Below are positions 1 to 56,544 of a DNA stretch of 56,544 nucleotides, piece by piece. Below the pieces are notes generated by a model, which saw nothing but the letters and a program-made list of their open reading frames with translations, was not told the DNA's origin and made no database searches. The position numbers and the translations under genes are program-made. Numbering within the stretch: position 1 is the first letter of the stretch; each line of letters begins with the position of its first letter. The DNA lies in the IMG/VR virus record IMGVR_UViG_3300027799_000001, positions 1 through 56,544 of that record. One strand, 5' to 3'. Source of the DNA: a virus. Lineage: Duplodnaviria > Caudoviricetes.

Positions 1-91
1 TGCAGCAAGGCAAACCTTTGGCGTTTTTTGGCTTTCAGTTAAGTGCCAAATTGCGTTCCCATTTTGCTTAACAGCCTCAAGGCAAATCTTT
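1..91. repeat. Terminal direct repeat, copy 1 (circular assembly overlap)
   Basis: nt 1-91 are identical to 56454-56544. Confidence 0.95.
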
Positions 92-624
92 GAAGTTCTT
101 TGTTTTTCAGTTAAATGAACAACAGCACAACCATTTTGCTTCACTGCTGCTAAACAAATCTGAGGTGTTCTTTGAGCTTCAGATAAAAACTTAATAGCAT
201 AACCATTCTCACACATTGCAGCAATGCAAACCTGATGTGTCCTATGTTCATCATTTAACCAATGAACAGCATAACCATTTTTATTAACTACTGATAAACA
301 TAATTCATGTGTACGAAGTTTATCCGGAATGAATTCCATTCCATCCCCATAATTTTCTGCTGTTATTATAGCCAATTCTAATAACTTTGGTTTTATTTTC
401 TCCATAAATCCTTCAACATCATCACCTACATAAACTTTAGAATCTATTTCCAAACCTTTGTTTTTACTATACTCATACTTGTTACATCTGTCCTCCCGAA
501 GCTTGAAAAAAGCACAGATCTGAGTGTGACTGTCAGGATTCTTAAGTAATTTCTTTTTGCGATCTTCTGCATTGATGTAATAGAAATTACCTTCATACGA
601 AACAAAGCTAAAAAAAAGACACAT
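1..624 (-). CDS. DUF4116-like repeat protein, copy I, 5' part (spans the origin; ~236 aa, 6 modules)
   Basis: Absent from the ORF track. AAGGAG RBS, ATG at 624, MCLFFSFVSYEGNFYYINAEDRKKKLLKNPDSHTQIC..., open to nt 1 and continuing in frame at 56453 to TAG at 56367-56369. Confidence 0.85.
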   Translation of the reverse strand, partial: MCLFFSFVSYEGNFYYINAEDRKKKLLKNPDSHTQICAFFKLREDRCNKYEYSKNKGLEIDSKVYVGDDVEGFMEKIKPKLLELAIITAENYGDGMEFIPDKLRTHELCLSVVNKNGYAVHWLNDEHRTHQVCIAAMCENGYAIKFLSEAQRTPQICLAAVKQNGCAVVHLTEKQRTSKICLEAVKQNGNAIWHLTESQKTPKVCLAA

Positions 625-1554: not shown

Positions 1555-1776
1555 TTACAACAAATGTTTTACGAATTCAAGCTCGTTCTCGAGTAGTAGC
1601 TTAGCAGCTTCTTTGTTTTGTGTAATAGCAGCTACGCATATCTCTTGTGATCGTATATTGCATGGTACATACGATATATTTAATCCATTTTTAGTCACAA
1701 GAGCCAAGCAAAGTTCGTAAGTAAATTCTGATCTTGGCAACTTTCGTAAATCTAAGGTTTCAGTATTTAAAGACAT
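1555..1776 (-). CDS. Short DUF4116-like repeat protein, copy J (lacks the N-terminal domain)
   Basis: Likely start MSLNTET at 1776; TYELCLALVTKNGLNISYVP and SQEICVAAITQNKEA modules. Confidence 0.7.
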   Translation of the reverse strand: MSLNTETLDLRKLPRSEFTYELCLALVTKNGLNISYVPCNIRSQEICVAAITQNKEAAKLLLENELEFVKHLL

Positions 1777-1777
1777 T

Positions 1778-1966
1778 TTATATGTCCTTTCTTTTTTGTT
1801 CAATAAAAATAGTATTAACAATAAACTCATGCGATTTTCCAGCAAATAACCATCTTTTAAAAACTTTTTGAGCTTCATTGTTTTTTGATTTGCTGAGAGA
1901 ATCTATTATGTTCGCCAAAATGTCTACTTTTTCTTGTTCACTTAGTAAGCCATGTTTCGAATTCAT
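1778..1966 (-). CDS. Hypothetical early protein
   Basis: AAGGAA RBS; first ORF after the 2017-2045 promoter. Confidence 0.6.
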   Translation of the reverse strand: MNSKHGLLSEQEKVDILANIIDSLSKSKNNEAQKVFKRWLFAGKSHEFIVNTIFIEQKRKDI

Positions 1967-13793: not shown

Positions 13794-14189
13794 TTAAAAA
13801 GGTAAATCATCAATTTTTTCTTCAATTGTTTTTAATGGCTCAGTTACAATAATTTCAGCATTGTTATAATTAGCCTTATTCTTTTTTTCTGACACAACTA
13901 TTTTATTAACAAAAACAATGATTTTAAATATTTTTTCATTATTTTTATTAATATATTCATCAAAAATAACAGATCCAGAAATATCAACCAACCTACCTTT
14001 TAAAACATCGCTCTCAAAAGATGTTATAATCTTTTCATTTAAAACATTGCACTGAATCCATATCGTTTTATCTTCACCTGTTTTTTGTTTCTGCTTTGAT
14101 GCTACAGAAAACGAAGCCATTTTTTTACCAGATTTAGTTGTTAATATTTCTGGTTCTTTGCCAACTATTCCTTTAAAATTTAACTCCAT
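13794..14189 (-). CDS. ssb: Single-stranded DNA-binding protein
   Basis: OB-fold motifs (G.VGKEPE, FSVA, T.W), acidic DDLPF tail. Confidence 0.9.
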   Translation of the reverse strand: MELNFKGIVGKEPEILTTKSGKKMASFSVASKQKQKTGEDKTIWIQCNVLNEKIITSFESDVLKGRLVDISGSVIFDEYINKNNEKIFKIIVFVNKIVVSEKKNKANYNNAEIIVTEPLKTIEEKIDDLPF

Positions 14190-14206: not shown

Positions 14207-14716
14207 TTAAGATTTTTTAAAACACGATTTAATTTCTTTGCACTCGCCTCTATATATACAATCTGGTACTAATACATCCTTTAAAATTGGATCTATTAGT
14301 TTTATAGAGTTAACAACCAATTCCCATGCATATCTTGTTTCTTGTGATGCATTTTTACATAAACGTTTACGTGATATGTTGATTATGGACTGTATATTTG
14401 CAACACACATGTGCTCAATTAACGCACCTTGTGGTAATTCAGCTCGCGAAACACCAGTCCTATCCTCTCGCTGTGAACGGACATAATGTTCAATTCCAAA
14501 TTTGTGCCTAACGAAATGAACACTTACATAATATGGTAAATCAATCCATTTCCATGCAAAGGTTAAACATCTTATAGGAGAATGCTCTGATTTTAAAAGT
14601 TTTATTTTAAATTCATCTGATAAATCAATAGCATTATGTTTATTAATTGTTGAAGCACAAGCAATTGATACGATATCCCAATCTATTAATTTTTTACAAA
14701 ATTCCAATGTAGTCAT
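14207..14716 (-). CDS. thyX: Flavin-dependent thymidylate synthase (ThyX-like)
   Basis: EHSP.R, VRHK...SQR, RLC..A..ETR, VP.C motifs. Confidence 0.75.
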   Translation of the reverse strand: MTTLEFCKKLIDWDIVSIACASTINKHNAIDLSDEFKIKLLKSEHSPIRCLTFAWKWIDLPYYVSVHFVRHKFGIEHYVRSQREDRTGVSRAELPQGALIEHMCVANIQSIINISRKRLCKNASQETRYAWELVVNSIKLIDPILKDVLVPDCIYRGECKEIKSCFKKS

Positions 14717-17889: not shown

Positions 17890-18366
17890 TCATTTTTTCT
17901 TTTTATATATTTTACTCAATTGTTTTGATATTGAATCTTCTATTATTTTTTTGCCATTTTCTTTCCACTCTTCATAGACATACAATCTTTTTGGTACAAA
18001 AACTTTTAGTAAATAAAAAATTTTGTCTTTTATAAAAAACTTTAATGTTTTTTTGTTTTTAGGATATATGAAACCATCAAAATTATCATGCTGGTGTACC
18101 TTGCCATACCATACACGGTTCCGCATTAACACTTTAAAATCTTTCGAATCAACATTTTCTTTTTCAACAAAAAATCCATTAGCTAATTGACCTGACACTC
18201 TATTAAGACTAGTATTATCTTTTTTTCTTCCAGATAATTGAGTTTTGACAATATGAGTTTTGAATAGCTCCACACCAATGTATATGCCATGTTTAATAGC
18301 ATCAATACTATTTTTTTTGTTTTTATTTAAAAACTTTGAAAAATCATCAAAATTATTTTTGTTCAT
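17890..18366 (-). CDS. Neck / tail completion protein (HK97 gp10-like)
   Basis: Basic protein with LNRVSGQL and YG.VH motifs. Confidence 0.5.
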   Translation of the reverse strand: MNKNNFDDFSKFLNKNKKNSIDAIKHGIYIGVELFKTHIVKTQLSGRKKDNTSLNRVSGQLANGFFVEKENVDSKDFKVLMRNRVWYGKVHQHDNFDGFIYPKNKKTLKFFIKDKIFYLLKVFVPKRLYVYEEWKENGKKIIEDSISKQLSKIYKKKK

Positions 18367-18967
18367 AATATTTTTTTAATGCTCCAACAAAGCAATCGGT
18401 TTGTTCGTTTATTTTTTTAACTACAACCCTTCTATCAGAAGTATTAATTTTTATTATGTAACATTCAATTTGTTTGCCAGAAACTTCATTTTTATAATTT
18501 TCCTCAATTAAAATTTTATAAGCACCTAATTGATGCTCTATACCAACACTTTTGTGTCCTGTTTTAATATCTGCGATAATTATTTTATCTTTTGATATAA
18601 CAAATCTATCTATAGTTCCAGCAAATTTGTATTTTTGTGAATAAAGTTGTTCTTCTATATAGAGTTGCCCTCGATAGATCTTGTTTGTTTTATCCAAATA
18701 TAGTTTATAAATATCACCATACTCACAAAACTCTTCTACATCACATATTAACGAGTCTATTTTTTCTGTTTCTCTATGTATGCGTTCTCCTTTATTACGT
18801 GCAATTTCCAATATAACAGGATCTATACAATTAAAATCTTGCACCAAGCCACCAAATTTTAAAATTTGAGTTACGCTTGGTACAACTGAACCGCACCATT
18901 CATATTTATGATATTTTTTATTGAACGTCAGCATTTGAATCTGATTCTTGTTCAGACAAGATAACAT
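18353..18967 (-). CDS. PD-(D/E)XK exonuclease
   Basis: H.Y...VPSVTQIL, G..IH, AGTID, DIKTG, QL.AY; true start probably near 18934. Confidence 0.85.
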   Translation of the reverse strand: MLSCLNKNQIQMLTFNKKYHKYEWCGSVVPSVTQILKFGGLVQDFNCIDPVILEIARNKGERIHRETEKIDSLICDVEEFCEYGDIYKLYLDKTNKIYRGQLYIEEQLYSQKYKFAGTIDRFVISKDKIIIADIKTGHKSVGIEHQLGAYKILIEENYKNEVSGKQIECYIIKINTSDRRVVVKKINEQTDCFVGALKKYYEQK

Positions 18968-19856
18968 TAATTCTATTTAAAACTTGCTTTAATTTCGTAA
19001 GATCATCTTTGTGTTTTTGAACATACTCTTTAATTTCTTTGGCTTTATTTTCTTCCAATTTTGTAGTAAGTTCTGTTATTTCTGCTATGTTTTTTCTACA
19101 ATCTTCAATATACGATTCATCAGTTTTAGATCTATCAATATAGTTAAAAACAATTTTTGGATCTAACGGCAATCGTTTTGGCATATTGAATCGATTTTTA
19201 GCTTCAAATCCTGGTTGTCTCTGTGTATAGACTACATGTTCACCACCCTTAGCTTTCCCTTTACCACTTTTTGAAGTTTTAACCACATTAAGATCATATG
19301 TGGCAAACAGAAGAGCATCTGATTTTTCTTTAAGTAAAGCAGCTAAAACATCTTTGATTTTTATTTCGTATCTTTCGTAACTCTCGCGTAATGGATCGTT
19401 GAATGTCTTTACTTGGCTATGCGCAGTAATCAATATATTGATTGATTTTTTTTCACATATTTCTTCCATCAAACAAAAAACATTATACATTTCAACTTTG
19501 GCTAATTTATAGCCAGAATTATAGCCAAAAGTTTCTATATTTTTTTGATCATTTTCTAAACTGATGTGGGTATACAATAAATTCTCCAACCCATCAATTG
19601 TGTCAATCACAATTGTTTTATAATCAAATTGTTCATTCAAAATAAAATTTAATATTTCTTTGAATTCTTGCCAACTATTAGGAGTTACATTACTAACATC
19701 AGAAAATGATTCTCCAACCATTCCATTTTCACCACATATAAAAAATGGTTTTTCACATCCTGCACCAAACGTTGACTTACCAACACCCTCAACACCGTAA
19801 AGGGTTATTATGTAACCTTTTTTATTAAACCCCTTTTTAATATTAATCTTCATCAA
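18918..19856 (-). CDS. AAA_24 / Sak4-like recombination ATPase
   Basis: YGVEGVGKST Walker A, IVIDT, AH, AKNR motifs; next to the exonuclease. Confidence 0.85.
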   Translation of the reverse strand: MMKINIKKGFNKKGYIITLYGVEGVGKSTFGAGCEKPFFICGENGMVGESFSDVSNVTPNSWQEFKEILNFILNEQFDYKTIVIDTIDGLENLLYTHISLENDQKNIETFGYNSGYKLAKVEMYNVFCLMEEICEKKSINILITAHSQVKTFNDPLRESYERYEIKIKDVLAALLKEKSDALLFATYDLNVVKTSKSGKGKAKGGEHVVYTQRQPGFEAKNRFNMPKRLPLDPKIVFNYIDRSKTDESYIEDCRKNIAEITELTTKLEENKAKEIKEYVQKHKDDLTKLKQVLNRINVILSEQESDSNADVQ

Positions 19857-43001: not shown

Positions 43002-43049
43002 TTTTATATGATGAATTAATAGTTAGACAATATGAACAAAGGAGTCTGT

Positions 43050-43523
43050 ATGAGTACCATGTTAGTAAAAGATTTAGATAAGAATTTAGCCTTACTTACG
43101 AAAGGGATAGAAATTCGAACCACAATGAGAAAGATCGGGTACAGCAACATTGAATATGGTTTCAATTTTCTTTTTGTGAAATATAAAAACAAAAAGAAAA
43201 CACAGATTCTTTCTGTGTTTGGTGGTGAGGATTTGATACCTTTTCTACAAATAGATGTAGTCGGTTACCTGCAAGATAAGAAAGTAATTGAGCTTAAAAA
43301 CAAAAAAGTGCTTGAAGAGGAGGTACCGCCATCTATATGTATCCTTCTCTGGACTCTTTTAATTTCTTCAGCAACGGCGCTAATAAGTGCCTCTTTGGAG
43401 TCATTTGGTTTGAAAGATTTGTCTTTCAATATATGGGTTGTATCGATGATCGAAATGGGTGTAGGTTTGGCGTTAGGCATTGTAATTGATTGGATTTACA
43501 TGTATAAAAACAGAATAAAATAA
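43050..43523 (+). CDS. Membrane protein (two C-terminal TM helices), paralog 1
   Basis: AAGGAG RBS before MSTMLVKDLDK; aligns with 43865-44305. Confidence 0.7.
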   Translation: MSTMLVKDLDKNLALLTKGIEIRTTMRKIGYSNIEYGFNFLFVKYKNKKKTQILSVFGGEDLIPFLQIDVVGYLQDKKVIELKNKKVLEEEVPPSICILLWTLLISSATALISASLESFGLKDLSFNIWVVSMIEMGVGLALGIVIDWIYMYKNRIK

Positions 43524-43526
43524 TTC

Positions 43527-43555
43527 TTGACAACTTTGGCGAATTGTTGTATACT
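43527..43555 (+). promoter_or_regulatory. Sigma70-type early promoter
   Basis: TTGACA-17 nt-TATACT. Confidence 0.85.
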
Positions 43556-43595
43556 TAGATAGTAATAATTACCAACCCTAAAATAGAGGTGACTT

Positions 43596-43817: not shown

Positions 43818-43864
43818 TTTTTAGTACAACACTATTGTCAAATTTCATGAACAAAGGAATACGT

Positions 43865-44305
43865 ATGAATACATTGTTAGTGAAAGATTTAGATAAGGAT
43901 CTAGTTTTAGTTCAAAATAACAGCGAAATACAAAAAATAATGGAGGCAATCGGCTACGATAACAATATATACGAATTCGATTTTATTTTCGTCAAAACAC
44001 AAAAAAAACAGATTGTTTCGGTGTTTGGTGGAAAAGGTATTATGCCTTTCGACCTAAAAGAAGTAACAGAGCTTAAAGCCAAGAAAAAAGAGTACCAAGT
44101 TATCAAGGGCGATTATCCATCAGCAGTGCATATACTTATCGGTACATTTTTTGTTTCTTGGTTTACTGGTTTTATAAGCGCTTTTTTCTCGCTATTCTGT
44201 TTAGAAGATCTATCCTTTAAGATATTTATTGTATCGATGATCGAAATAGCCGCCGGATTACTGTTGTCTTTAGTTATTGCTTTAATTGAAATTTTCAAAA
44301 ACTAA
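43865..44305 (+). CDS. Membrane protein, paralog 2
   Basis: MNTLLVKDLDK...DLSF.I..VSMIE. Confidence 0.7.
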   Translation: MNTLLVKDLDKDLVLVQNNSEIQKIMEAIGYDNNIYEFDFIFVKTQKKQIVSVFGGKGIMPFDLKEVTELKAKKKEYQVIKGDYPSAVHILIGTFFVSWFTGFISAFFSLFCLEDLSFKIFIVSMIEIAAGLLLSLVIALIEIFKN

Positions 44306-44316
44306 TAAAATAATTA

Positions 44317-44345
44317 TTGACAGCTTTTGAGAATTGTGATATACT
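44317..44345 (+). promoter_or_regulatory. Sigma70-type early promoter
   Basis: TTGACA-17 nt-TATACT. Confidence 0.85.
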
Positions 44346-44373
44346 TAGATAGTAACAAGCAAAGGATCCGAAA

Positions 44374-44451
44374 ATGAAGCCTTAAAGAATCAGATTAGTT
44401 AACGGAGAGATTGTAATTGTCGATCATGTTCAAGAACAAGAAGATAATTAA
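44374..44451 (+). pseudogene. Remnant of the MKxQxIRL family
   Basis: MKP*RIRLVNGEIVIVDHVQE; TAA where the paralog has Gln. Confidence 0.55.
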
Positions 44452-44461
44452 AGGATATGTT

Positions 44462-44665
44462 ATGAATAATTTAACCGATTGTCCAGTATGTGGTTCTACA
44501 GAAATGAAACGAGTAACTCATAATGAAACCTTCATCTACAAAGGACGTGAAATACAGATTAAAGACTATACAATTTATCAATGCAATAATTGTGGGGAAG
44601 GTTTCGCTGATCCAGAAAGTAGGAAAAAAGAAGAGAGTTTACTTCAAGATGAGCAACTAAGTTGA
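44462..44665 (+). CDS. Stand-alone MqsA/YgiT-type zinc finger
   Basis: CPVCG...ETF.YKG....I......C..CGE; no HTH follows. Confidence 0.8.
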   Translation: MNNLTDCPVCGSTEMKRVTHNETFIYKGREIQIKDYTIYQCNNCGEGFADPESRKKEESLLQDEQLS

Positions 44666-45093: not shown

Positions 45094-45328
45094 AAACAAA
45101 GGAGTAGAAAAATGAGAGCAATAGTATTAGATGTATCTGTAGGTACGGAAGAGCATGCAGGTGGTATTATGTGTAGTTTCGATGAGGACTGCGCAAGATA
45201 CATAGGGCAGACTATAGAAGTCCAGCATATGTTTACTGATTGTTTACGATGGTATACCTTGAAAGGAAAATCTACAATTAAGCCTGAAGTAATTTTCCAT
45301 AAAAATTGGTTAGAATTTGTACAATAAA
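45094..45328 (+). repeat. 235-nt inverted repeat, arm 1
   Basis: Reverse complement of 56146-56380; no mismatch seen by eye. Confidence 0.92.
45112..45327 (+). CDS. 71-aa hypothetical protein, copy 1
   Basis: Identical protein at 56147-56362. Confidence 0.8.
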   Translation: MRAIVLDVSVGTEEHAGGIMCSFDEDCARYIGQTIEVQHMFTDCLRWYTLKGKSTIKPEVIFHKNWLEFVQ

Positions 45329-45383: not shown

Positions 45384-46166
45384 ATGTCGAGAAAATTCAG
45401 AGTGAACGAGAAAGTAAGGAAGTCACCGCCTGAATTCACAAAAGAAAAAAAATGTATAGGTAAAGTTTTAGAATTTGACGACAATGCCTTTTGCAATGGT
45501 TGTTATAAGATTAGGCCCAAAGGTTCTTTTGATTTACTCATGTTTCATGGGTCTTGGCTTGATGATGTGCATGAGGACACTCCTGTAGACGATTTACGTA
45601 CTATTTTAGAGAAAGCAGAAAAGACAAATATAGAAAAATTAGATGAAACACCTATAATGTTTCAGAAATCTTGGCTTGATGAGGTGTATGAGGACACCCT
45701 TGTAGACGATTTACACACTATTTTGGGGAAAACAGAAGAACCAAAGTCAGACTATCACAAAGCAAAATATGACAAAGGAAAATATCAACCAAGATACATT
45801 CCGGTGATAGCTGAAGAGTTGGCGGCCAGGGTGTTTGAGTTTGGCGGTTGTAAAAACTATGGTTTCTTCTCTTTCCAAGATGTACCGGAAGCTATGGACA
45901 GATACATGGATGCACTGAAGCGTCATTATGATGTTCTCATGCTGCATAAACAACAAAATGGAAATTATGATATCAATGAGTCAGAATCACAAATACCAGA
46001 GATAGCTTTTATTCTTTCAAACGCTATGATGCTGGTTCATGTATATGTTAGGGAGGCGGCAAAAGCCAAAGGTATGACAATGAGAGAGTATGTTGATAAG
46101 GAAATTAATCCGGGCATGTTTACTGCTTTTGATGCGGTAAAAGAAAAATATAATACGAAAAGTTGA
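45384..46166 (+). CDS. Fusion: small N-terminal domain plus DUF5664-like dATP/dGTP diphosphohydrolase
   Basis: KYD.GK....IP, A.V.EFG..KNYG, RY.DA..RH, ES; N-terminus paralogous to 55858-56109; internal ~39-aa duplication. Confidence 0.75.
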   Translation: MSRKFRVNEKVRKSPPEFTKEKKCIGKVLEFDDNAFCNGCYKIRPKGSFDLLMFHGSWLDDVHEDTPVDDLRTILEKAEKTNIEKLDETPIMFQKSWLDEVYEDTLVDDLHTILGKTEEPKSDYHKAKYDKGKYQPRYIPVIAEELAARVFEFGGCKNYGFFSFQDVPEAMDRYMDALKRHYDVLMLHKQQNGNYDINESESQIPEIAFILSNAMMLVHVYVREAAKAKGMTMREYVDKEINPGMFTAFDAVKEKYNTKS

Positions 46167-46788: not shown

Positions 46789-47337
46789 ATGTGTGAATTT
46801 TTTAGTTTTGTCTCATATAACAATGTTTTTTATTATTTTAATGCCAAGGACAGGGAAAAAAGGTTAGTTCCCAACCCAGATGACCATGAACGAATTTGTA
46901 AGTATTTTAAGATTAATGAATATAAGTGTAATAAATACTCATATATTAGAGGGAAACTTAAAACATATGATAAACAATATAAAGGTGACCACCCCAAAAA
47001 ATTTATTAAAAAGTTAAAACCAAAATTTAGCGAATTATGTTTGGCTGCTGTACAATTTTATGGTTCAAGCATTGGTGGAGTTCCAAACAAATACAGAACT
47101 CCAGAGCTTTGTATGTCATCAGTACAACAAGACGGAAGTGCAGTTTATTATTTGACTTCTAAACAAAGGACTAGATGTGTTTGTTTAGCAGCAATACAGC
47201 AAGACAGTTGGGCTATTGATTACTTAAATGATGAGCAAAGAACGCCACAGGTTTGTGAAGCGGCCGTTAGACAAGATGCATCAGCGGCCGATTTTTTAAC
47301 CAAAGAACAAAGAAAATTTGTAGAGTATTTATTATAA
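46789..47337 (+). CDS. DUF4116-like repeat protein, copy A (4 modules, divergent)
   Basis: Start MCEFFSFVSY at 46789 after AAGGA; 24-aa modules. Confidence 0.85.
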   Translation: MCEFFSFVSYNNVFYYFNAKDREKRLVPNPDDHERICKYFKINEYKCNKYSYIRGKLKTYDKQYKGDHPKKFIKKLKPKFSELCLAAVQFYGSSIGGVPNKYRTPELCMSSVQQDGSAVYYLTSKQRTRCVCLAAIQQDSWAIDYLNDEQRTPQVCEAAVRQDASAADFLTKEQRKFVEYLL

Positions 47338-47352: not shown

Positions 47353-47877
47353 ATGTGCCTTTTTTTTAGCTTTGTATCTTATGACGGCAATTTTTACTAT
47401 ATCAATGCAGAAGATAGAAAAAAGAAGTTACTTAAGAATCCTGACAGTCACACTCAGATATGTACTTTTTTCAAACTTCGGGAGGACATGTGTAATAAAT
47501 ACGAGTATACGAAAGAGAAAGGTTTGGTAATAGATTCCGAAGTTTATGTAGGTGATGATGTTGAAGGATTTATAAAGAAAACACTTCCAAAATTAGTAAA
47601 AATAGCTATTGTGACAGTGGTGAATTACGGTAAAGGCATTACCTTTGTTCCAGAAGAAGCACGTACATCAAAGTTTTGTTTAGCTGCAGTGAACCAAAAT
47701 GGTTCTGCTGTTGTTCATTTAACTGAAAAACAAAGAACTTCAAAGATTTGCCTTGAGGCTGTTAAGCAAAATGGGAACGCAATTTGGCACTTAACTGAAA
47801 GCCAAAAAACGCCAAAGGTTTGCCTTGCTGCAGTACTACAGAATAAAGATGCTTATAATTATCTGACTGATTCTTAG
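47353..47877 (+). CDS. DUF4116-like repeat protein, copy B (4 modules; premature TAG in the C-cap)
   Basis: TAG at 47875 aligns with CAG in copy I; KKRVDLALENKKQ continues in frame after it. Confidence 0.85.
   Translation: MCLFFSFVSYDGNFYYINAEDRKKKLLKNPDSHTQICTFFKLREDMCNKYEYTKEKGLVIDSEVYVGDDVEGFIKKTLPKLVKIAIVTVVNYGKGITFVPEEARTSKFCLAAVNQNGSAVVHLTEKQRTSKICLEAVKQNGNAIWHLTESQKTPKVCLAAVLQNKDAYNYLTDS
47706..47868 (+). repeat. 163-nt inverted repeat shared by copies B and I
   Basis: Reverse complement of 56418-56453 joined to 1-127. Confidence 0.88.
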
Positions 47878-47930: not shown

Positions 47931-48737
47931 ATGTGCTGCTTTTTCGGTTTTGTCTCGTATGACAATGTTTTCTATTACATCAACGCAGAAGATAGGAAAA
48001 AGAAGTTACTTAAAAATCCTGACAGTCATACTCAGATCTGTTCCTTTTTCAATCTGCCTGAAGACAGATGCAATAAATACGAGTTTTCTGCAGATTTTGG
48101 CATTACAGCAGATGCCTTAGAATATAAAGATGACGACCCTGAAGGATTTATAAAAAAAATGTTGCCAAAATTAGTAGAAATGGCTATTGCGACAATTAAA
48201 ACTTATGGAGAAGGCATTGAGTTTTTATCAGACGAGGAACGCACTCAAGAAATATGTTTGGCTTTGGTTAAAAAGAATTGTGATGCAATAAGACACTTAA
48301 CTGATAAGCAGCGCACACCTGAGGTTTGTATCGCTGCAGTTAAGAAAGACGGCAACGCCATTGTCTATCTAACGAATAAACAGCGAACGCCAATGGTTTG
48401 CCTGGCCGCTGTTCAAAAAAATGGTGATGCTATTAGGTTCCTAACTGCTAAACAACGCACACCAAAAGTATGTAAGGAAGCAGTGAAGAAAGCTGGTTGG
48501 ACTATTACTTATTTAACAAATGAACAAAAGACTCTAGGACTTTGTATGTTATCTGTGGAAAAGAGTGGTACTAATATCGAGTATGTTCCTAATGAGCTAA
48601 GGACACCAAAGCTTTGCTTGACGGCAGTGTTAAAAGACAAGGCGGCTTTTAAATTTCTCAATTATATTCAAAAAGAAGAAGTGGCTATGGCTCTGCTAAA
48701 GCGAGTAAAAGCATGCAAAAAATCCGGAACAAAGTAA
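47931..48737 (+). CDS. DUF4116-like repeat protein, copy C (7 modules)
   Basis: MCCFFGFVSYD N-domain plus RTPxVCxAAVxxxGxAIxxLT repeats. Confidence 0.85.
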   Translation: MCCFFGFVSYDNVFYYINAEDRKKKLLKNPDSHTQICSFFNLPEDRCNKYEFSADFGITADALEYKDDDPEGFIKKMLPKLVEMAIATIKTYGEGIEFLSDEERTQEICLALVKKNCDAIRHLTDKQRTPEVCIAAVKKDGNAIVYLTNKQRTPMVCLAAVQKNGDAIRFLTAKQRTPKVCKEAVKKAGWTITYLTNEQKTLGLCMLSVEKSGTNIEYVPNELRTPKLCLTAVLKDKAAFKFLNYIQKEEVAMALLKRVKACKKSGTK

Positions 48738-48761: not shown

Positions 48762-49712
48762 ATGGGTGGCTTTTTTAGTTTTGTATCGCACAAAAATACG
48801 TTTTATTATATTGACGTAAATGGGCGTAAAAACAAGATACTTGAAGATCCTGACAACCATACACAGATATGCGCATATTTCAAACTTCCTGAGAAGCAAT
48901 GTAATAAGTATGAGTATGTAAAATATGAGTTTTCTTCAGAAGATCCTAACGAGGAAGACGTTAGAGCTGAAAAGATAGTGTACGAAGGCGACGATCCATT
49001 TGATTTTATGGAAAAAATACGTCCTATTTTTACAGAATTGTGCATAACAACAGTTATTAATTATGGTAATGGAATCGAGTTCTTAAAGGGCTATCAACGG
49101 ACACCTGAAATTTGTTTAGCTTCTATTAAAAATAAGCCAGAGTCTATAGAATATTTGACTGATGAACAAAAAACACCACAGGTTTGTTTGGCAGCAGCGA
49201 AGAAAAATTGGGAAACTCTTGAGCACATGAATAACAAGCAGAGAACACCTGAAGTTTGTTTAGCGGCTCTTTTGCAAAATATCGAAGCAGCCAGAATATT
49301 GACGGCTGAACAGATAACTCCAGAGATTTTACTTGCTACTGCTCAAAAAAATGGAGAAATAATAAAAATTTTATGGTCAAGTCACTTCAGAACACCTGAA
49401 GTTTGTCTTGCTGCTATTAAACAAAATTGGATGCTTATTAGTAGTTTGGCTGACGACCAAATAACATTGGATATTTGTATTGAAGCGGTATCACAAAACA
49501 AAGAAGCTTATGCTTATGTGCCTTTATCTATGAGAAGAAGACTTCATTCAAAGGTATCAAAAAAATTAAAGAAATTTTTTGAACAAAAAGATGAAGAAAG
49601 AATACGTGTAATAGAAGCTCGTGAAAAAGAAGATAAACGCAGGTTAGCTGCTCGGGAAAAGAAAAATGAAATTAAGAAGGCTCTTCGGTTTTTGTTAAAG
49701 CAAATAGATTAG
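48762..49712 (+). CDS. DUF4116-like repeat protein, copy D (7 modules plus charged coiled-coil tail)
   Basis: MGGFFSFVS N-domain; K/R/E-rich C-terminus. Confidence 0.85.
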   Translation: MGGFFSFVSHKNTFYYIDVNGRKNKILEDPDNHTQICAYFKLPEKQCNKYEYVKYEFSSEDPNEEDVRAEKIVYEGDDPFDFMEKIRPIFTELCITTVINYGNGIEFLKGYQRTPEICLASIKNKPESIEYLTDEQKTPQVCLAAAKKNWETLEHMNNKQRTPEVCLAALLQNIEAARILTAEQITPEILLATAQKNGEIIKILWSSHFRTPEVCLAAIKQNWMLISSLADDQITLDICIEAVSQNKEAYAYVPLSMRRRLHSKVSKKLKKFFEQKDEERIRVIEAREKEDKRRLAAREKKNEIKKALRFLLKQID

Positions 49713-51229: not shown

Positions 51230-52093
51230 ATGTGTAACTTTTTTAGCTTTGTTTCGTATGACGGTCATTTCTATTACATCAACGCTGAAGACCGCAAAAA
51301 AGAAATACTTGAGAATCCTGACAGTCACACTCAGATATGTTCATTCTTCAATCTGCCTGAAGATAGGTGTAATAAGTACGAGTATACGAAAGAGAAAGGT
51401 TTGGTAATAGATTCCAAAGTTTATGTAGGTGATGATGTTGAAGGATTTATGGACAAAATATATTCAAAATTAGTAGAATTGGCTATAATAACAGCAGAAA
51501 ATTATGGGGATGGAATGGAATTCATTCCGGATAAACTTCGTACATCAGAGCTTTGTTTGGCAGTGGTTAAGAAAAATGGAAATGCGATCAAATATTTATC
51601 TTTAGAGCAGAGAACTCCAAATGTTTGTTTAGCGGCGGTGAAGCAGGATGGTTATGCTGTTTGTTGGCTAACAGAGGATCAAAGAACGCCTCAAGTTTGT
51701 TTGGCAGCAGTAATGCAAAATGGTAGTGCTATTGGGTATTTAACTTTCAAACAAAAAACTCCTGAAATTTGTTTGGCTGCTGTTAAGCAAAATGGTGGCG
51801 CTATCATGGTTTTATCTGAGGAGCATGCCACACCAGAAGTTTGTAGGGCTGCTATTAACAACAATCCTTATTCCGTGGCAAGCATACCCGACAAATTGCG
51901 TACTCAAGATCTTTGTTTGATGGCTGTTAAAAAAGATGGGACTGTTGTTAAATATTTATTGGATGAAGAGAGAACGCTGGATATTTGTTTAGCGGCAGTG
52001 AGGCAAAATAAAAATACTCGTAAATATTTGACTGAAGATCAGAAAAAAGCAGTAGATTTAGCATTAGAAAATAAAAATAAAACAAAAGGATAG
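51230..52093 (+). CDS. DUF4116-like repeat protein, copy E (8 modules)
   Basis: MCNFFSFVSYD N-domain; C-cap DQKKAVDLAL. Confidence 0.88.
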   Translation: MCNFFSFVSYDGHFYYINAEDRKKEILENPDSHTQICSFFNLPEDRCNKYEYTKEKGLVIDSKVYVGDDVEGFMDKIYSKLVELAIITAENYGDGMEFIPDKLRTSELCLAVVKKNGNAIKYLSLEQRTPNVCLAAVKQDGYAVCWLTEDQRTPQVCLAAVMQNGSAIGYLTFKQKTPEICLAAVKQNGGAIMVLSEEHATPEVCRAAINNNPYSVASIPDKLRTQDLCLMAVKKDGTVVKYLLDEERTLDICLAAVRQNKNTRKYLTEDQKKAVDLALENKNKTKG

Positions 52094-52098
52094 AAAAA

Positions 52099-52260
52099 AT
52101 GTGTCATTTTTTTAGCTTTGTATCTTATGACAATGTTTTCTATTACATCAATGCCGAAGATAGAAAAAAGAAATTACTTAAGAATCCTGACAGTCATACT
52201 CAGATATGTTCCTTTTTCAATCTGCCTTTGAATATTACAATTTTCAGCAGCAAACAATAA
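52099..52260 (+). pseudogene. Copy F: truncated N-terminal domain joined out of frame to an ankyrin gene
   Basis: MCHFFSFVSYDNVFYYINAEDRKKKLLKNPDSHTQICSFFNLP, then unrelated LNITIFSSKQ*. Confidence 0.85.
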
Positions 52261-52267
52261 CATAAAC

Positions 52268-52699
52268 ATGCTTAAACTATCAATAAAAGAAGGTGGAAAT
52301 GTGAATGCTAATGAAGGTTTTGCATTGCGCCGAGCAATAGAATTAAATAATGTTAAAATGGTCGCTCTGTTATTAAAAAATGGAGCAGACCCCAATGTAT
52401 ATAGACATTCATCAATACGACTTGCAGTACGACATAATAATACAAAAATTGCTAAGTTATTAATAGATGCTGGTGCTGATATTAATGAAGAAAATGGTTT
52501 TTCCTTGCTATTTGCCGCTATAAATGGTAATGTGGAAATGGTTAAAATTTTAATATCGCCAAATAATAAGGGCAAAAATATAAAAAAGAAAGTTTTACGT
52601 TCAACTATTAAAAGTATTCATGGGTATTCTTTGATACCAAATAATGCTAATAAATACACAGAAATTATTAATGTTTTAACAAATAAATTGAAAGGATAA
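52268..52699 (+). CDS. Ankyrin-repeat protein (5' truncated)
   Basis: AL..A...NN...V.LLL..GAD.N repeats; the first repeat (ILQFSAANNNIN) starts upstream of the ATG, from 52232. Confidence 0.85.
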   Translation: MLKLSIKEGGNVNANEGFALRRAIELNNVKMVALLLKNGADPNVYRHSSIRLAVRHNNTKIAKLLIDAGADINEENGFSLLFAAINGNVEMVKILISPNNKGKNIKKKVLRSTIKSIHGYSLIPNNANKYTEIINVLTNKLKG

Positions 52700-52727
52700 T
52701 ATGAAACACTATGTAAAACACAACATA

Positions 52728-53240
52728 TCAAACAATATAGTTTGGTATGTTGAATTTGTTTAAAATCTCTACCTTTTCAGCACTTTGTTTTTTTCGCATT
52801 GTTTTATACCATTCGCAAGGTATTTTACACAAAACAAAACCGCCTTTCTTGCGACTATATCTTTTCTGTTGTGGGATACATGAGCAATCGCTTAGTCCGA
52901 ATAGAAGTATTTCCAGTCTATCACCTGTATTCGGGTGTTTTAAATTGGCAAGATAATAATTGAAACTCTTTTTTACATGTGTGTTTTGTTTGATATAATG
53001 GCAAAAATAAAATCTAACGCTTCTGAGCCATGTTATCAATACTCTTTTTGTTATATCCTTATAAATTATCAAACCCTTGTGCACAACGCTGTATCTCCTA
53101 CAACCGCAATACACACTGCCTGACAAAACTATTTTGTACAAATGCTCTTTGCATCTATGATGGACTTTATCGATCCTATTTATCCCGCTATCCATTCCAG
53201 TACGTAATTCATACCACATATGGGATTTTATACACCTCAA
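52728..53240 (-). CDS. Hypothetical basic protein
   Basis: 170-aa ORF co-oriented with DUF1064; start uncertain. Confidence 0.45.
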   Translation of the reverse strand: MRCIKSHMWYELRTGMDSGINRIDKVHHRCKEHLYKIVLSGSVYCGCRRYSVVHKGLIIYKDITKRVLITWLRSVRFYFCHYIKQNTHVKKSFNYYLANLKHPNTGDRLEILLFGLSDCSCIPQQKRYSRKKGGFVLCKIPCEWYKTMRKKQSAEKVEILNKFNIPNYIV

Positions 53241-53589
53241 TAATATTTATTTTATGTACAGCATACATTAGTTTCTTTTTGAGCTTATACTCAGGTGTAA
53301 GTAACTTTTGGGATGCTTTAACATCATATACTATACTCTGTCCGTCATTATATGTTACAACAAAATCAGTTACATAATCACATATGCGTACATTATTTAC
53401 TTCGATTGGATATCTTTTGTGTACTTCAATCGATTCTATATTACCTCTATTTTTAAGCATTTCAAGAAATAAATAAAATTTATATTCCTTTTTTGAGTCG
53501 AATGTATATCCACCATATACAATACGCTTATGCATGTATCTACCAGTTTTTGACTTGAATTTTTTGTAACAAACTGGATAACTCGGCAT
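53209..53589 (-). CDS. DUF1064-family nuclease
   Basis: G..FDSKKE, Y..DF, DVK, TPEY.LKKKL; GGAG RBS before ATG at 53589. Confidence 0.85.
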   Translation of the reverse strand: MPSYPVCYKKFKSKTGRYMHKRIVYGGYTFDSKKEYKFYLFLEMLKNRGNIESIEVHKRYPIEVNNVRICDYVTDFVVTYNDGQSIVYDVKASQKLLTPEYKLKKKLMYAVHKINIIEVYKIPYVV

Positions 53590-53696
53590 TAAAACTCCAT
53601 TAAGTACAACATTGTATTGTATATAATATAATACAATAATAATAAATTGTATCAAAAAAATATTATTTTTTTAAAAAAATAATTGTTCAACTAAAC

Positions 53697-53927
53697 TCAT
53701 CTCAATATTTGTTTGTAGGCTTCGTAAATCTGGCGGGAAAAAAGCTCATCTGTTTTTTTCATCTCTTCAATTATGCTGTATATTGTATCATTTGGATTAA
53801 TTACACACTCATAACTATATTGGTCACATGCTTCTTCATTGGTTTCTTTCTTAATCAAATACTTAGTATTCAATTTGCCGCCTTTGTAAAAGTTTGTTGA
53901 TTGCATAGTTATTAAATAATATATCAA
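53697..53927 (-). CDS. Hypothetical protein
   Basis: Co-oriented ORF; start uncertain. Confidence 0.4.
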   Translation of the reverse strand: MIYYLITMQSTNFYKGGKLNTKYLIKKETNEEACDQYSYECVINPNDTIYSIIEEMKKTDELFSRQIYEAYKQILR

Positions 53928-53935
53928 AAGTGTAA

Positions 53936-54106
53936 TTACAACATGTTTCTGTCCTTTAATAATATATTAATTCGGTCATAATAGTCCTCTTTTTTTTGTC
54001 TTTCTATTTCCAACAATACGTCTACCGCCTCATAAATATTATATCCAACGCGACACAGTTTAATCAATTCATCAGAATAATCACTTGAATCACTTGTATT
54101 TATCAA
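53936..54106 (-). CDS. 56-aa protein, tandem paralog 2
   Basis: TTG start; DYSDELIKLCRVGYNI. Confidence 0.6.
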   Translation of the reverse strand: MINTSDSSDYSDELIKLCRVGYNIYEAVDVLLEIERQKKEDYYDRINILLKDRNML

Positions 54107-54222
54107 TTAATTATCCATTTCGTTAAAATGTTGATTGTTTTGATATATTTATTAAAATCGAATTCGATTGTAAATCATTGTTTGTATTTTTTACTCAATA
54201 ATACTGAATCAACAAAATATAA

Positions 54223-54399
54223 TCATAACGCATCTTTATCTTTTATAAATTTGTCAATTTCATTTTTGTGCTCCTCTTTCTTTTTTTTGATTTCTGATAT
54301 TATGTTTAATGACTCATTAATATTGTACCCTGCTTTAAACAGTTTGATTAATTCGTCTGAATAATCTTCTAAATCATCTAAATAACATGTGTTAAACAT
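54223..54399 (-). CDS. 58-aa protein, tandem paralog 1
   Basis: ATG start; DYSDELIKLFKAGYNI. Confidence 0.65.
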   Translation of the reverse strand: MFNTCYLDDLEDYSDELIKLFKAGYNINESLNIISEIKKKKEEHKNEIDKFIKDKDAL

Positions 54400-54474
54400 T
54401 TAATTATCCATTTCTTCAGAATGTTAATGATTTGAATATGTTTATTACAATAGAATTCGATTTTAAATTATTGT

Positions 54475-55326
54475 TTAATTTTTACTTTCCAATGCTAAAT
54501 CTACTGCTTTTTTCTGATCTTGAGTCAAAAAATTATAAGCATTTTTATTCTGCAGTACCGCGGCCAAGCAAATCTGAGGTTCTCTTTGCTCATCAGTTAA
54601 ATAATAAATAGCAGTACCATTTTGCTTAACCGCAGCAAAACATATCTCCGGAGTTTTTTGCCTATAAGATAAATGTCTAACTGCTCTACCGTTTTGCATT
54701 ACTGCTGCTAAACAAATATCTGGAGTTTTATCTTTATCAAGTAAAAAATTAATAACATCTCCATGTTTTTTAACAGCCATCAAACAAAGATCTTGAGTAC
54801 GCAATTTGTCATGCATATAGGCTACAGAACAAGGGTTATTGTTAATAGCAGCAATACAAACTTCCAGTGTTTGCTGTTTTTCAGATAAATATTCTATAGC
54901 CTTACCATTTTGGTTCACTGCTGCCAAGCAAATCTGAGATGTCTTATGTTCATCATTTAACCAACGAACAGCATGTCCTTTTTTACTAACTACTGATAAA
55001 CATAATTCATGTGTACGAAGTTTATCTGGAATGAATTCAATTCCATTCCCATAATTTTCTGCTGTTATTATAGCCAATTCTACTAATTTTAAATATATTT
55101 TGTCCATAAATCCTTCAACATCATCACCTACATAAACTTTAGAATCTATTACCAAACCTTTCTCTTTCGTATACTCATACTTATTACATCTATCTTCAGG
55201 AAGCTTGAAAAAAGCACAAATTTGAGTGTGACTATCTGGATCCTCAAGTATTTTGTTTTTTCTATCTTCGGCATTGATGTAATAGAATGTATTATCATAA
55301 GATACAAAGCTAAAAAAATGACACAT
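54475..55326 (-). CDS. DUF4116-like repeat protein, copy G (8 modules)
   Basis: MCHFFSFVSYD N-domain; C-cap DQKKAVDLALESKN. Confidence 0.88.
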   Translation of the reverse strand: MCHFFSFVSYDNTFYYINAEDRKNKILEDPDSHTQICAFFKLPEDRCNKYEYTKEKGLVIDSKVYVGDDVEGFMDKIYLKLVELAIITAENYGNGIEFIPDKLRTHELCLSVVSKKGHAVRWLNDEHKTSQICLAAVNQNGKAIEYLSEKQQTLEVCIAAINNNPCSVAYMHDKLRTQDLCLMAVKKHGDVINFLLDKDKTPDICLAAVMQNGRAVRHLSYRQKTPEICFAAVKQNGTAIYYLTDEQREPQICLAAVLQNKNAYNFLTQDQKKAVDLALESKN

Positions 55327-55344: not shown

Positions 55345-55836
55345 TTAATTTTTACTTTCCAATACCAAATCTACTGCTTTTTTCTGATCTTGAGTCAAAT
55401 GATAATAAGAATTTTTGTTTTGCATTACAGCCTTTAAACATACCTCAGGTGACCGCTGTTCGTCAGTAAAATACTTTATAGCATATCCATATTTTTCGAC
55501 TATCGCCAAGCAAATTTCAGGTGTGAGTTGAAAACCTTTTAAAAACTCATTTCCTTTACCATAATTCATAATTGTCACTATGCATAGTTCTTCAAATTTC
55601 GGCATTAATTTTTCAATGAAGCCTTCTGGATCATCGCCTTTATACTCAAAAGCATCAGTCATAATTCCATCATATTTATAATACTCATATTTATTACATC
55701 GGTCTTCAGGCAGATTGAAGAATGAACAGATCTGAGTGTGACTGTCAGGATTTTTAAGTAACTTCTTTTTGCGATCTTCGGCATTGATATAGTAAAAATG
55801 GCCGTCATACGAAACAAAGCTAAAAAAATGGCACAT
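55345..55836 (-). CDS. DUF4116-like repeat protein, copy H (3 modules)
   Basis: Same N-domain and C-cap. Confidence 0.88.
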   Translation of the reverse strand: MCHFFSFVSYDGHFYYINAEDRKKKLLKNPDSHTQICSFFNLPEDRCNKYEYYKYDGIMTDAFEYKGDDPEGFIEKLMPKFEELCIVTIMNYGKGNEFLKGFQLTPEICLAIVEKYGYAIKYFTDEQRSPEVCLKAVMQNKNSYYHLTQDQKKAVDLVLESKN

Positions 55837-55857: not shown

Positions 55858-56109
55858 TTATTTTAGGTCATCTATTTCATTGACAACAGGGTATACATCA
55901 TCTGCTGGAGTGTCATCTGGGACAGAATCAAGCCAATATTTTTGAAATACAAAAAAGTAGGGATTGTATTTAGTTCCAATAACATAACAACCATTGCGAA
56001 TATATTTTTCATCAAAGGCTAAAACTTTACCAACTAATTTTTTTTCTCTCGAGAAATACCGTAAAGTACAATCCAATACATTCTCATTTACTCTAAATTT
56101 TTTCAGCAT
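55858..56109 (-). CDS. Stand-alone paralog of the N-terminal domain of 45384-46166
   Basis: KFRVNE.V...EKK..GKVL.FD....NGCY...WLD.V..DTP.DD shared. Confidence 0.75.
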   Translation of the reverse strand: MLKKFRVNENVLDCTLRYFSREKKLVGKVLAFDEKYIRNGCYVIGTKYNPYFFVFQKYWLDSVPDDTPADDVYPVVNEIDDLK

Positions 56110-56145: not shown

Positions 56146-56380
56146 TTTATTGTACAAATTCTAACCAATTTTTATGGAAAATTACTTCAGGCTTAATTGT
56201 AGATTTTCCTTTCAAGGTATACCATCGTAAACAATCAGTAAACATATGCTGGACTTCTATAGTCTGCCCTATGTATCTTGCGCAGTCCTCATCGAAACTA
56301 CACATAATACCACCTGCATGCTCTTCCGTACCTACAGATACATCTAATACTATTGCTCTCATTTTTCTACTCCTTTGTTT
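56146..56380 (-). repeat. 235-nt inverted repeat, arm 2
   Basis: Reverse complement of 45094-45328. Confidence 0.92.
56147..56362 (-). CDS. 71-aa hypothetical protein, copy 2
   Basis: Identical to 45112-45327. Confidence 0.8.
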   Translation of the reverse strand: MRAIVLDVSVGTEEHAGGIMCSFDEDCARYIGQTIEVQHMFTDCLRWYTLKGKSTIKPEVIFHKNWLEFVQ

Positions 56381-56544
56381 TGCTTATATCTAAATCTACT
56401 CTTTTTTTCTGAGAATAAGTCAGATAATTATAAGCATCTTTATTCTGTAGTACTGCAGCAAGGCAAACCTTTGGCGTTTTTTGGCTTTCAGTTAAGTGCC
56501 AAATTGCGTTCCCATTTTGCTTAACAGCCTCAAGGCAAATCTTT
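56367..56544 (-). CDS. DUF4116-like repeat protein, copy I, 3' part
   Basis: ...VLQNKDAYNYLTYSQKKRVDLDISKTKE*, in frame with 1-624 across the overlap. Confidence 0.8.
   Translation of the reverse strand, partial: KICLEAVKQNGNAIWHLTESQKTPKVCLAAVLQNKDAYNYLTYSQKKRVDLDISKTKE
56454..56544. repeat. Terminal direct repeat, copy 2
   Basis: Identical to 1-91. Confidence 0.95.

Follow-up and report, generated by a model that had tools for sequence, protein, structure and literature searches.

In the present study, we analyzed the metagenome-derived virus record IMGVR_UViG_3300027799_000001 (56,544 nucleotides (nt), referred to in its full length as the window) and focused on a family of nine related genes in which a conserved head is followed by tandem DUF4116 repeat units. 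Our results suggest that these copies have quite probably exchanged short stretches as well as whole units, most likely by ordinary homologous recombination. This estimate covers the joint reading, in which a multigene family grew by duplication and was kept mosaic by ectopic homologous recombination. Homologous recombination among the copies, out of register included, had been proposed in a first-pass annotation of the sequence, and it was borne out by exact shared runs, a Sawyer-type test, contrasts in synonymous divergence (dS, synonymous substitutions per synonymous site) and shifts of 144 nt. The phage array, with its undescribed head, is a new example of a known process, namely the concerted evolution of a multigene family with exchange of repeats.

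The head domain was matched nine times in the record, in eight whole paralogs and one stub. Each full copy contains a conserved head of about 85 amino acids (aa) starting with MCxFFSFV, followed by 3-8 tandem 24-aa (72-nt) DUF4116 units and a cap unit. An ATG and an AAAGGAG-type ribosome-binding site (RBS) are present in 9/9 copies, and the frame, start codon, RBS and 72-nt register are intact in all eight full copies. The copies and the units discussed below are located as follows, with the internal units designated R0, R1 and so on, or by copy and number (E5, G3):

46789..47337, plus strand: copy A, a divergent copy with the head and four DUF4116 units.
47353..47877, plus strand: copy B, head and R0-R3; it stops early relative to copy I, and homology to the tail of copy I continues to 47922.
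47931..48737, plus strand: copy C, head and R0-R6.
48762..49712, plus strand: copy D, a divergent copy with the head, seven units and a charged C-terminal extension.
51230..52093, plus strand: copy E, head and R0-R7; the INNNP/MAVKK block forms units 5-6.
51689..51832, plus strand: units E3-E4 (VMQNG, VKQNG), proposed counterparts of G5-G6.
51833..51976, plus strand: units E5-E6 (INNNP and MAVKK), homologous to G3-G4; they hold the 45-nt exact tract 51890-51934.
52099..52260, plus strand: copy F, a stub with head residues 1-43 and unrelated sequence after them; it nevertheless has 32-nt exact tracts in common with G and I.
52268..52699, plus strand: ankyrin-repeat open reading frame (ORF; Ank_2, E-value 1.3e-14) with its own ATG in another frame; it follows and truncates copy F.
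54475..55326, minus strand: copy G, head and R0-R7; the INNNP/MAVKK block forms units 3-4.
54724..54867, minus strand: units G3-G4 (INNNP and MAVKK), holding the 45-nt exact tract 54766-54810.
54580..54723, minus strand: units G5-G6 (VMQNG, VKQNG).
55345..55836, minus strand: copy H, head and R0-R2.
1..624, minus strand: 5' part of copy I, a mosaic, with the head, R0-R3 and part of R4.
56367..56453, minus strand: 3' part of copy I, across the record junction; 56454-56544 repeats 1-91.

Copy I wraps around the record, running from 624 to 1 and then from 56453 to 56367. At the Pfam gathering score for DUF4116 (PF13475) of 24.9 bits, 7/9 scanned proteins were over the cut-off (E 129.9, G 121.2, C 78.4, I 68.7, D 51.7, B 51.6 and H 33.0 bits), and copy A exceeded it together with its neighbours in a six-frame search. 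The array takes up about 6 kb of the 56-kb genome with its nine copies, compared with a single head in 5/5 other head-bearing phage records (one extra match was a terminal-repeat duplicate). The sequence running from the tail of E into the head of F resembles that from the tail of H into the head of G and from the tail of B into the head of C, and such homology across gene-to-gene junctions is expected of an array grown by tandem duplication. The paralogs lie in an accessory region at the distal ends of two convergent gene arms, which meet near 52.7 kb, and outside the tail module. Three more small paralogous gene pairs are found among the accessory genes (43032-43568 and 43847-44358, 1270-1544 and 2176-2450, 53985-54213 and 54272-54504; 65-71% DNA identity), suggesting that duplication is general in this region. 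A tenth small ORF (1555-1878, minus strand) codes for a DUF4116-like unit and a cap without a head; it scored 22.2 bits, just below the cut-off, and gave no DNA-level match to the nine copies.

The repeats are predicted to form an alpha-solenoid. In the AlphaFold2 (AF2) model of copy E, the predicted local distance difference test (pLDDT) score was 87.6 overall and about 98 in the repeats, and each 24-aa unit folds into two helices, of 10 and 6 residues, and a turn. This is similar to the contact-based trRosetta model of the DUF4116 family, which, as far as the relevant section of that source goes, is also an alpha-solenoid (PMC8078820), so that both folds are predictions. No solved structure of the DUF4116 family was found. 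When 31 internal units were compared, two positions of the short helix, 13 and 16, proved hypervariable (entropy 3.5-3.6 bits), and the core is near-fixed at C4, L18 and T24 (0.2-1.0 bits).

Four exact matches between copies had been claimed, and all of them are real (45/45, 71/71, 40/40 and 163/163 nt). The 45 nt at 51890-51934 in E are the reverse complement of 54766-54810 in G. Positions 310-380 in I are the reverse complement of 51474-51544 in E (71 nt), and positions 285-324 in I are identical to 54987-55026 in G (40 nt). The 163 nt at 47706-47868 in B recur exactly, reverse-complemented, at 56418-56453 and 1-127. Copy I had been described as a patchwork of three donors ending with the tract from B. 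The tracts from E, G and B are exact as stated, but the 163-nt tract is not the last 163 nt of the gene: it corresponds to nt 498-660 of 711, and 51 nt of I including the stop codon come after it. A scan along copy I gave an E-like stretch at nt 235-290 (36/36 per scan window), G as the best match at nt 290-380, no close match for unit I2 at nt 397-460 (best 67%), and a B-like stretch at nt 469-650 that is shifted by 144 nt. Copy I is equivalent to B plus two units. In total, 32 exact matches of at least 24 nt were found among the copies. The long out-of-register ones are the 163-nt tract of B and I and the 45-nt tract of E and G, and in both the offset is exactly two units (144 nt). H also has short tail matches of 33 and 25 nt, whose five-unit offset simply reflects the shorter length of H.

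The first-pass annotation also proposed that the units of E and G stand in permuted order. The protein orders are as quoted there, and the INNNP/MAVKK block is two units apart in the two copies; the counterpart relationship of E4 and G6 was not resolved, and that of E3 and G5 is moderate. E5 and G3 (78% DNA identity) and E6 and G4 (82%) are reciprocal best hits over a background of 55-68%. In a tree of 38 units, built without the 66-nt B3 and without the eight degenerate R0 units, E5 grouped with G3 (support 100/99), E6 with G4 (100/98), E3 with G5 (94/91), G1 with I1 (99/98) and B1 with I3 (97/78), and B2 was the same as I4. Based on the reciprocal best hits and these clades, the INNNP/MAVKK block lies two units (144 nt) further along in E than in G. 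The best hit of E3 is I3 (81%), despite the clade of E3 and G5. When the six internal units were arranged in all 720 possible ways, the collinear order came 691st and the order given by the first-pass annotation 17th; the pairs E5 to G3 and E6 to G4 occur in all of the six best. The displacement of the block by two units is solid, and a reciprocal swap of the other two units is moderately supported. The arrangement may be described as the relocation of a two-unit block, or as a cyclic permutation of a four-unit block if E3-E4 correspond to G5-G6. Either unequal crossover or off-register conversion yields such an arrangement, so no dedicated shuffling machinery is needed.

Statistical tests supported exchange between the copies. 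In a run-length test in which mismatches were placed randomly (50,000 simulations per pair), 5/6 pairs had runs with P <= 0.004: the 71-nt run of E and I (P 2e-5), the 163-nt run of B and I (2e-5), the 45-nt run between E5-E6 and G3-G4 (6e-5), the 39-nt run of B and E (0.001) and the 49-nt run of E and G (0.004). A Sawyer-type permutation test over the first 387 nt of six copies, without A, D and F, which are too divergent or truncated, gave a global P of 1e-4 for E and I. Since C and H have a different middle segment that inflates runs among the others, the test was repeated with B, E, G and I (130 polymorphic sites). The run of 27 sites between E and I (global P 0.0002) and the run of 18 sites between G and I (P 0.011) were recovered. 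The gene-conversion test and the per-unit tree, both suggested as checks by the first-pass annotation, carry a signal of recombination. The 32 informative sites among these four copies split into three incompatible partitions (BE|GI 15, BG|EI 7 and BI|EG 10), each clustered in its own stretch. Furthermore, dS between B and I is 0.57 in the head and 0.046 in B1-3/I3-5, a difference of about 10-fold (Fisher P 3e-5). Similar contrasts were observed between E and G (head 0.64, R0 0.065; P 0.011) and between G and I (head 0.455, R1 0.076; P 0.08). A contrast of about 10-fold within one pair is not explicable by selection on the protein.

These data bear directly on a reading without recombination, in which whole-gene duplication was followed by divergence and purifying selection preserved the stretches of identity. 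The head is indeed under strong purifying selection (dN/dS 0.06-0.27), and a +1-frame ORF across head codons 1-58 in 6 copies could constrain synonymous sites. However, within a single pair, dS is about 10-fold lower where segments were converted, and the three incompatible partitions are spatially clustered. The tracts of E and I (nt 245-315), G and I (nt 301-340), B and I (163 nt) and E and G (45 nt) all lie outside the +1-frame ORF (nt ~20-178), and two tracts are off register by exactly 144 nt, which selection on aligned positions cannot account for. The reading without recombination is already contradicted by the clustered partitions, the register shifts and the dS contrasts, and we regard it as highly improbable.

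The +1-frame ORF itself (52-56 aa, TTG start) is open over the first 58-62 codons in copies B, C, E, G, H and I and is broken in A and D. Its positions are as follows:

51249-51407, 47372-47530 and 47950-48120, plus strand, and 55149-55307, 55659-55817 and 444-605, minus strand: +1-frame ORFs.

The probability of such openness by chance is 0.02-0.15 per copy in synonymous resampling, with the copies not independent of each other. At most, this hints at an overlapping gene or at constrained synonymous sites.

The exchanged segments might also have been imported from different co-infecting phages and not exchanged within one genome. Phage mosaicism through annealing recombinases is well known, at least in the portion of the literature source drawn on here (PMC5499656), unit I2 has no close donor in the genome (best 67%), and a second public sequencing run (X2, described below) contains low-depth DUF4116 fragments of other organisms. 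Nevertheless, the paralogs joined by identical tracts belong to one genome, with two of the tracts inverted and two out of register, and replacement by orthologues would not yield that pattern. No close phage relative was found either. The large terminase (TerL) had at best <=28% identity to cultured phages, a search of IMG/VR with the major capsid protein (MCP) and TerL gave zero relatives, and the 45-mer tract had 0 hits in IMG/VR. Copy E matched sequences in IMG/VR, JGI metagenomes and GTDB contigs in the head domain only (35-58%). Records very near the phage may be missing from the searched sets. On balance, import from co-infecting phages is quite unlikely, and exchange within the genome is the preferred reading.

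The mosaics could in principle be artefacts, that is, chimeric joins or collapsed strain variants of the metagenome assembly. To weigh this, the shared tracts need to be seen together with two long inverted repeats:

47706..47868, plus strand, with the other arm at 56418-56453 and 1-127: 163-nt exact inverted repeat of B and I; both record ends lie inside it.
45094..45328, plus strand: left arm of a 235-nt exact inverted repeat, containing an entire 71-aa gene with its RBS.
56146..56380, minus strand: right arm of the 235-nt repeat.

The 163- and 235-nt repeats bracket the convergence point of the two transcription arms, and in the latter, identity drops to about 70% directly past the stop codon of the 71-aa gene. 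The first 91 nt of the record are the same as the last 91 nt, leaving a unique length of 56,453 nt (56.45 kb), and this terminal repeat lies wholly within the 163-nt repeat. The source database classes the record as having direct terminal repeats, with an estimated completeness of 100%; the assembly may simply overlap at a repeat present in two copies, in which case the 'direct terminal repeat' is no physical genome end. It is conceivable that recombination at either inverted repeat would invert 8.5-10.8 kb with the genes staying co-oriented with their arm, giving two genome isomers.

Two public runs were compared with the record. Run X1, labelled as a freshwater sediment metagenome, contained 96% of the sampled words, and X2 contained 9%; X1 is probably the source sample of the record. 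The run data are k=31 contigs, which drop rare variants and cannot bridge shared tracts of at least 31 nt. In X1, 34/38 contigs were at least 99% alike to the record, and the eight listed pieces had 0 differences. The depth (about 85x) was 76-96 in unique bins and 136-160 in bins with shared tracts, where the contigs end. A doubling confined to the shared-tract bins is expected of true two-copy sequence. One X1 contig with a depth of 80.7 matches G at 54928-55017 and B at 47675-47736 on opposite strands and is copy I itself; it ends 31 nt inside the 40-nt tract of G and I and 31 nt inside the 163-nt repeat. As a single unbranched k=31 contig, it indicates that the G-like, unique and B-like parts of I are contiguous in the reads. 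In X2, low-depth joints at 46841>49584, 51075>56391 and 51795>49101 (depth 2-7, with extra letters between the sides) were too weak to read and may come from other organisms. The second of these (one 2x contig, three extra letters), likewise too weak to read, would, if real, represent a variant lacking copies E-H together with the ankyrin gene and the second 71-aa gene.

An artefact would be favored by the metagenomic origin of the record, by the location of both record ends inside the 163-nt repeat, by repeats of 163 and 235 nt that are longer than likely reads, and by the breaking of k=31 contigs at every shared tract of at least 31 nt. However, a chimeric join requires a pre-existing shared exact tract and cannot create one, and the tracts of 40-71 nt fit well inside one read. 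The G-like, unique and B-like stretch of I forms one unbranched contig with a depth of 80.7 against 76-96 in its neighbours, elevated depth (136-160) is confined to the shared-tract bins, and eight full copies have kept frame, start codon, RBS and 72-nt register. The path through the 163- and 235-nt repeats is uncertain, yet a wrong path there would only invert the segment between the arms, leaving the patchwork unaffected. Thus, an assembly artefact is very unlikely as the source of the mosaics, and recombination among the copies continues to account for them best.

Genes that could serve such recombination are encoded by the phage:

18918..19856, minus strand: Sak4-like recombinase (AAA_24; phrog_124 E-value 9.9e-41, PF13479 E-value 2.2e-38).
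18353..18967, minus strand: PD-(D/E)XK exonuclease, adjoining the Sak4-like gene.
13794..14189, minus strand: SSB with an OB fold (PF00436 E-value 1e-12) and the C-terminal tail ...IDDLPF, 4.7 kb from the Sak4-like gene.
53209..53655, minus strand: DUF1064/Holliday-junction-resolvase-like gene, inside the paralog region.

The presence of a Sak4-like protein and an SSB, as stated earlier, was confirmed by these profile matches. The reported lack of a reverse transcriptase (RT) was confirmed as well, with 0 matches to PF00078 in the record and a positive control in 3/14 control genomes. Serine and tyrosine recombinases (PF00239 and PF00589) also had 0 matches each in the record, and no integrase was found. 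Sak4 has single-strand annealing activity that is stimulated by its cognate SSB, according to the passage available from one report (PMC5928155), and annealing proteins such as Sak4 recombine diverged DNA in what a second source states on the point (PMC5499656). The first-pass annotation named the Sak4 module of the phage as the agent of the exchanges. Its genes are present, and the attribution is plausible, with host RecA expected to leave the same footprints.

Taken together, a possible course of events would be the following. The family would have grown by duplication. A break or stalled fork in one copy might be resected by the PD-(D/E)XK exonuclease, and the single strand might then be annealed or paired with another copy by Sak4/SSB or host RecA and the patch copied; such short-patch gene conversion would leave exact tracts of 40-235 nt. 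The conserved core common to all units would permit pairing one or two units off register, by which units could be added, removed or relocated. Variants with new solenoid surfaces may have been kept if the repeats recognise host or rival targets and the head provides a common function. What the sequence itself establishes is that the copies are paralogs, that they are mosaic, that their registers are shifted and that recombination genes are encoded; the resection, annealing and copying steps we infer from these.

A stronger version would make the array a programmed or continuously active diversifier. The phage's own Sak4, SSB, exonuclease and resolvase would move units and patches among eight expressed copies in each replication round and flip the 8.5-10.8-kb segment, and the genomes mixed in a lysate would differ in their binding surfaces; this would be an analogue of diversity-generating retroelements (DGRs), a shufflon or lamprey variable lymphocyte receptor (VLR) assembly free of RT and of recombinase sites. 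In favor of this are the nine copies against one in 5/5 other head-bearing phage records, the very recent date of exchanges (dS of 0.05-0.08 where sequence was converted, with exact tracts as long as 235 nt), the two long exact inverted repeats flanking the convergent terminus, the resolvase-like gene inside the region together with the Sak4, SSB and exonuclease genes, and the hypervariable repeat positions. However, the record has no site-specific recombinase and no RT, and general homology was seen in place of specific recombination sites. The greater part of every gene pair is old, with a head dS of 0.45-2.2, suggesting that turnover is evolutionary rather than per-infection. The shuffling had been called ongoing, and this was not supported: the X1 contigs (about 85x) match the record without an alternative junction (the share running on into unlike sequence was 0.02), although such contigs drop rare variants, so that this is not evidence of absence. 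We therefore consider an active diversifier unlikely and prefer exchange by homologous recombination over evolutionary time.

Several results weigh against the recombination reading or limit it. The 48-nt run of G and I was not significant (P = 0.08), and in the four-sequence Sawyer-type test the pairs B-E, B-G and B-I were not globally significant. E4 and G6 are only 69% identical and were not resolved as a pair in the tree, and the best hit of G6 is I3 (74%). A hybrid junction at the start of G5 ('PDIC', like the cap units E7 and D6) was considered and rejected, as its first 18 nt are identical at 15/18 positions to I3, E7, E2 and D1 alike. The agreement of X1 with the record is not independent, because X1 is probably the source sample, and the missing alternative junction among its contigs also counts here. 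Because near-identical copies can be merged during assembly, the two arms of the 163- and 235-nt repeats may in fact differ slightly, and both repeats exceed reads of ~150 nt, the length suggested by the 151-nt contigs of X2. No related genome or population variant was found, and nothing links the exchanges to Sak4 rather than host RecA. As for the fold, a Foldseek search of the whole protein against the PDB gave a designed armadillo repeat protein as its best match, which was not significant (E-value 0.08). For the head, the best Foldseek match in the PDB had an E-value of 1.1 and a wide VIA-align search gave a best Z of 5.0; that best match, an RNase-PH-like C-terminal domain, was rejected as lying inside the stated noise range of the tool.

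The head defines a large family. Its AF2 model had a pLDDT of 82.9. Searches of Pfam and PHROGs gave zero matches, the ESM Atlas gave no usable match, and a word-indexed search with head residues 1-85 returned two paralogs of its own record only. In a library of 1.84 billion proteins, 480 cluster representatives matched the head at E <= 0.001 and 308 at E <= 1e-10, and in these the head nearly always begins at residue 1, that is, at the N-terminus. It was also found in 103 ORFs across 99 loci from viral and metagenome contigs (not de-duplicated). The consensus is MCNFFSFV ... DSH ... CNKYEY, with M1, F4, F5, F7, V8, R22, D31 and H33 invariant. The commonest tails on the head in relatives are four-residue SVxx repeats with a conserved C-terminal domain; others are ~21-aa repeats, a 'GWN...WSIS' domain, non-repeat tails and DUF4116. 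The combination with DUF4116-like units is rare (3/148 non-window representatives among the best 150 of 480 matches), as called with a hidden Markov model (HMM) built from the record's own units. This large unannotated family merits description.

Based on the architecture, the genome position and the hypervariable positions, the copies might be recognition proteins. The chances appear about equal either way that the head carries a common activity or partner, that the solenoid is the variable recognition part, and that the family acts in the host cell on host or competitor targets. The exchanges had been said to build new binders. The predicted alpha-solenoid with two hypervariable positions per unit fits a binding surface; binding itself does not follow from the fit and is putative.

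Families of paralogs are not common in the compact genomes of phages. The presence of nine copies in 56 kb, compared with single copies elsewhere, points to strong pressure for several variants of one recognition protein, and candidate roles of such variants are host-range, takeover and anti-defence functions. Plain homologous recombination between tandem-repeat paralogs can relocate units and make new combinations in a virus. Were exchanges to occur frequently in a lysate, the array would represent a novel type of phage diversity generator, which the present data do not show.

Other systems vary proteins by different routes. The DGRs of phages vary a binding protein by mutagenic retrohoming with a reverse transcriptase. 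Both they and the array provide phage-borne variation of a putative binding protein, but the array has no RT, and pre-existing segments are exchanged. In shufflons and invertase switches (R64 Rci, Mu Gin and P1 Cin), inverted repeats give alternative gene ends or orders. In contrast, no serine or tyrosine recombinase is present here, and the repeats are 163-235 nt of general homology, not short specific sites; an inverted form across them was not found among the X1 k=31 contigs. Segmental gene conversion among paralogous copies produces mosaics in Borrelia vls and Neisseria pilE/pilS. Unlike in such silent-cassette variation, this phage has neither silent cassettes nor a single expression site, since 9/9 copies have an RBS and an ATG.

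The closest parallels were found outside phages. In fungal NLR genes whose internal conservation is high, repeats are exchanged between genes, and new binding specificities have been proposed to result, in the part of the article bearing on this (Ament-Velasquez and Saupe, 2026; PMC13449251). As far as that part describes them, the fungal NLRs and the phage family share a conserved head and superstructure-forming repeats exchanged between paralogs. The phage family differs in residing in a 56-kb genome, in having units that are 55-82% identical and not of high internal conservation, and in having a head that is not a known effector domain. Domain movement (DOMO) within Type I restriction-modification (R-M) specificity subunit genes occurs by recombination at flanking repeats, going by the section consulted of the original description (Furuta et al., 2011; PMC3077401). 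On the basis of that section, the likeness is that the same block stands at different positions in homologous genes (E5-E6 and G3-G4, 144 nt), with flanking repeats as the likely substrate, and that the number of units rises and falls. DOMO concerns alleles of one locus across strains and a target-recognition domain, whereas paralogs of one genome and two solenoid units are involved here. The phage array would use the same route as proposed for fungal NLRs and R-M specificity subunits. A literature search for phage paralogs or repeat proteins that undergo gene conversion or concerted evolution gave no phage example among the matches listed, which is weak evidence of absence.

The remainder of the genome is that of an uncultured siphovirus-like phage with a GC (guanine plus cytosine) content of 31%. 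It codes for a portal, a major capsid protein, a head-tail adaptor, a large terminase, a tape measure, a DnaB-like helicase and a primase, and no tRNA was found in the record. Modified DNA may be indicated by a ThyX-like gene (14207-14716) together with several genes resembling glycosyltransferases and methyltransferases (at 13-18 kb and 25.9-27.1 kb). A dATP/dGTP diphosphohydrolase-like gene (45384-46166, plus strand; PF18909, E-value 3.4e-12) and a short paralog of its N-terminal part (55858-56109, minus strand) each come after one copy of the 71-aa gene. In addition, 44417-44665 (plus strand) codes for a small zinc-ribbon protein that matches the N-terminal domain of the MqsA antitoxin (E-value 1.1e-9).

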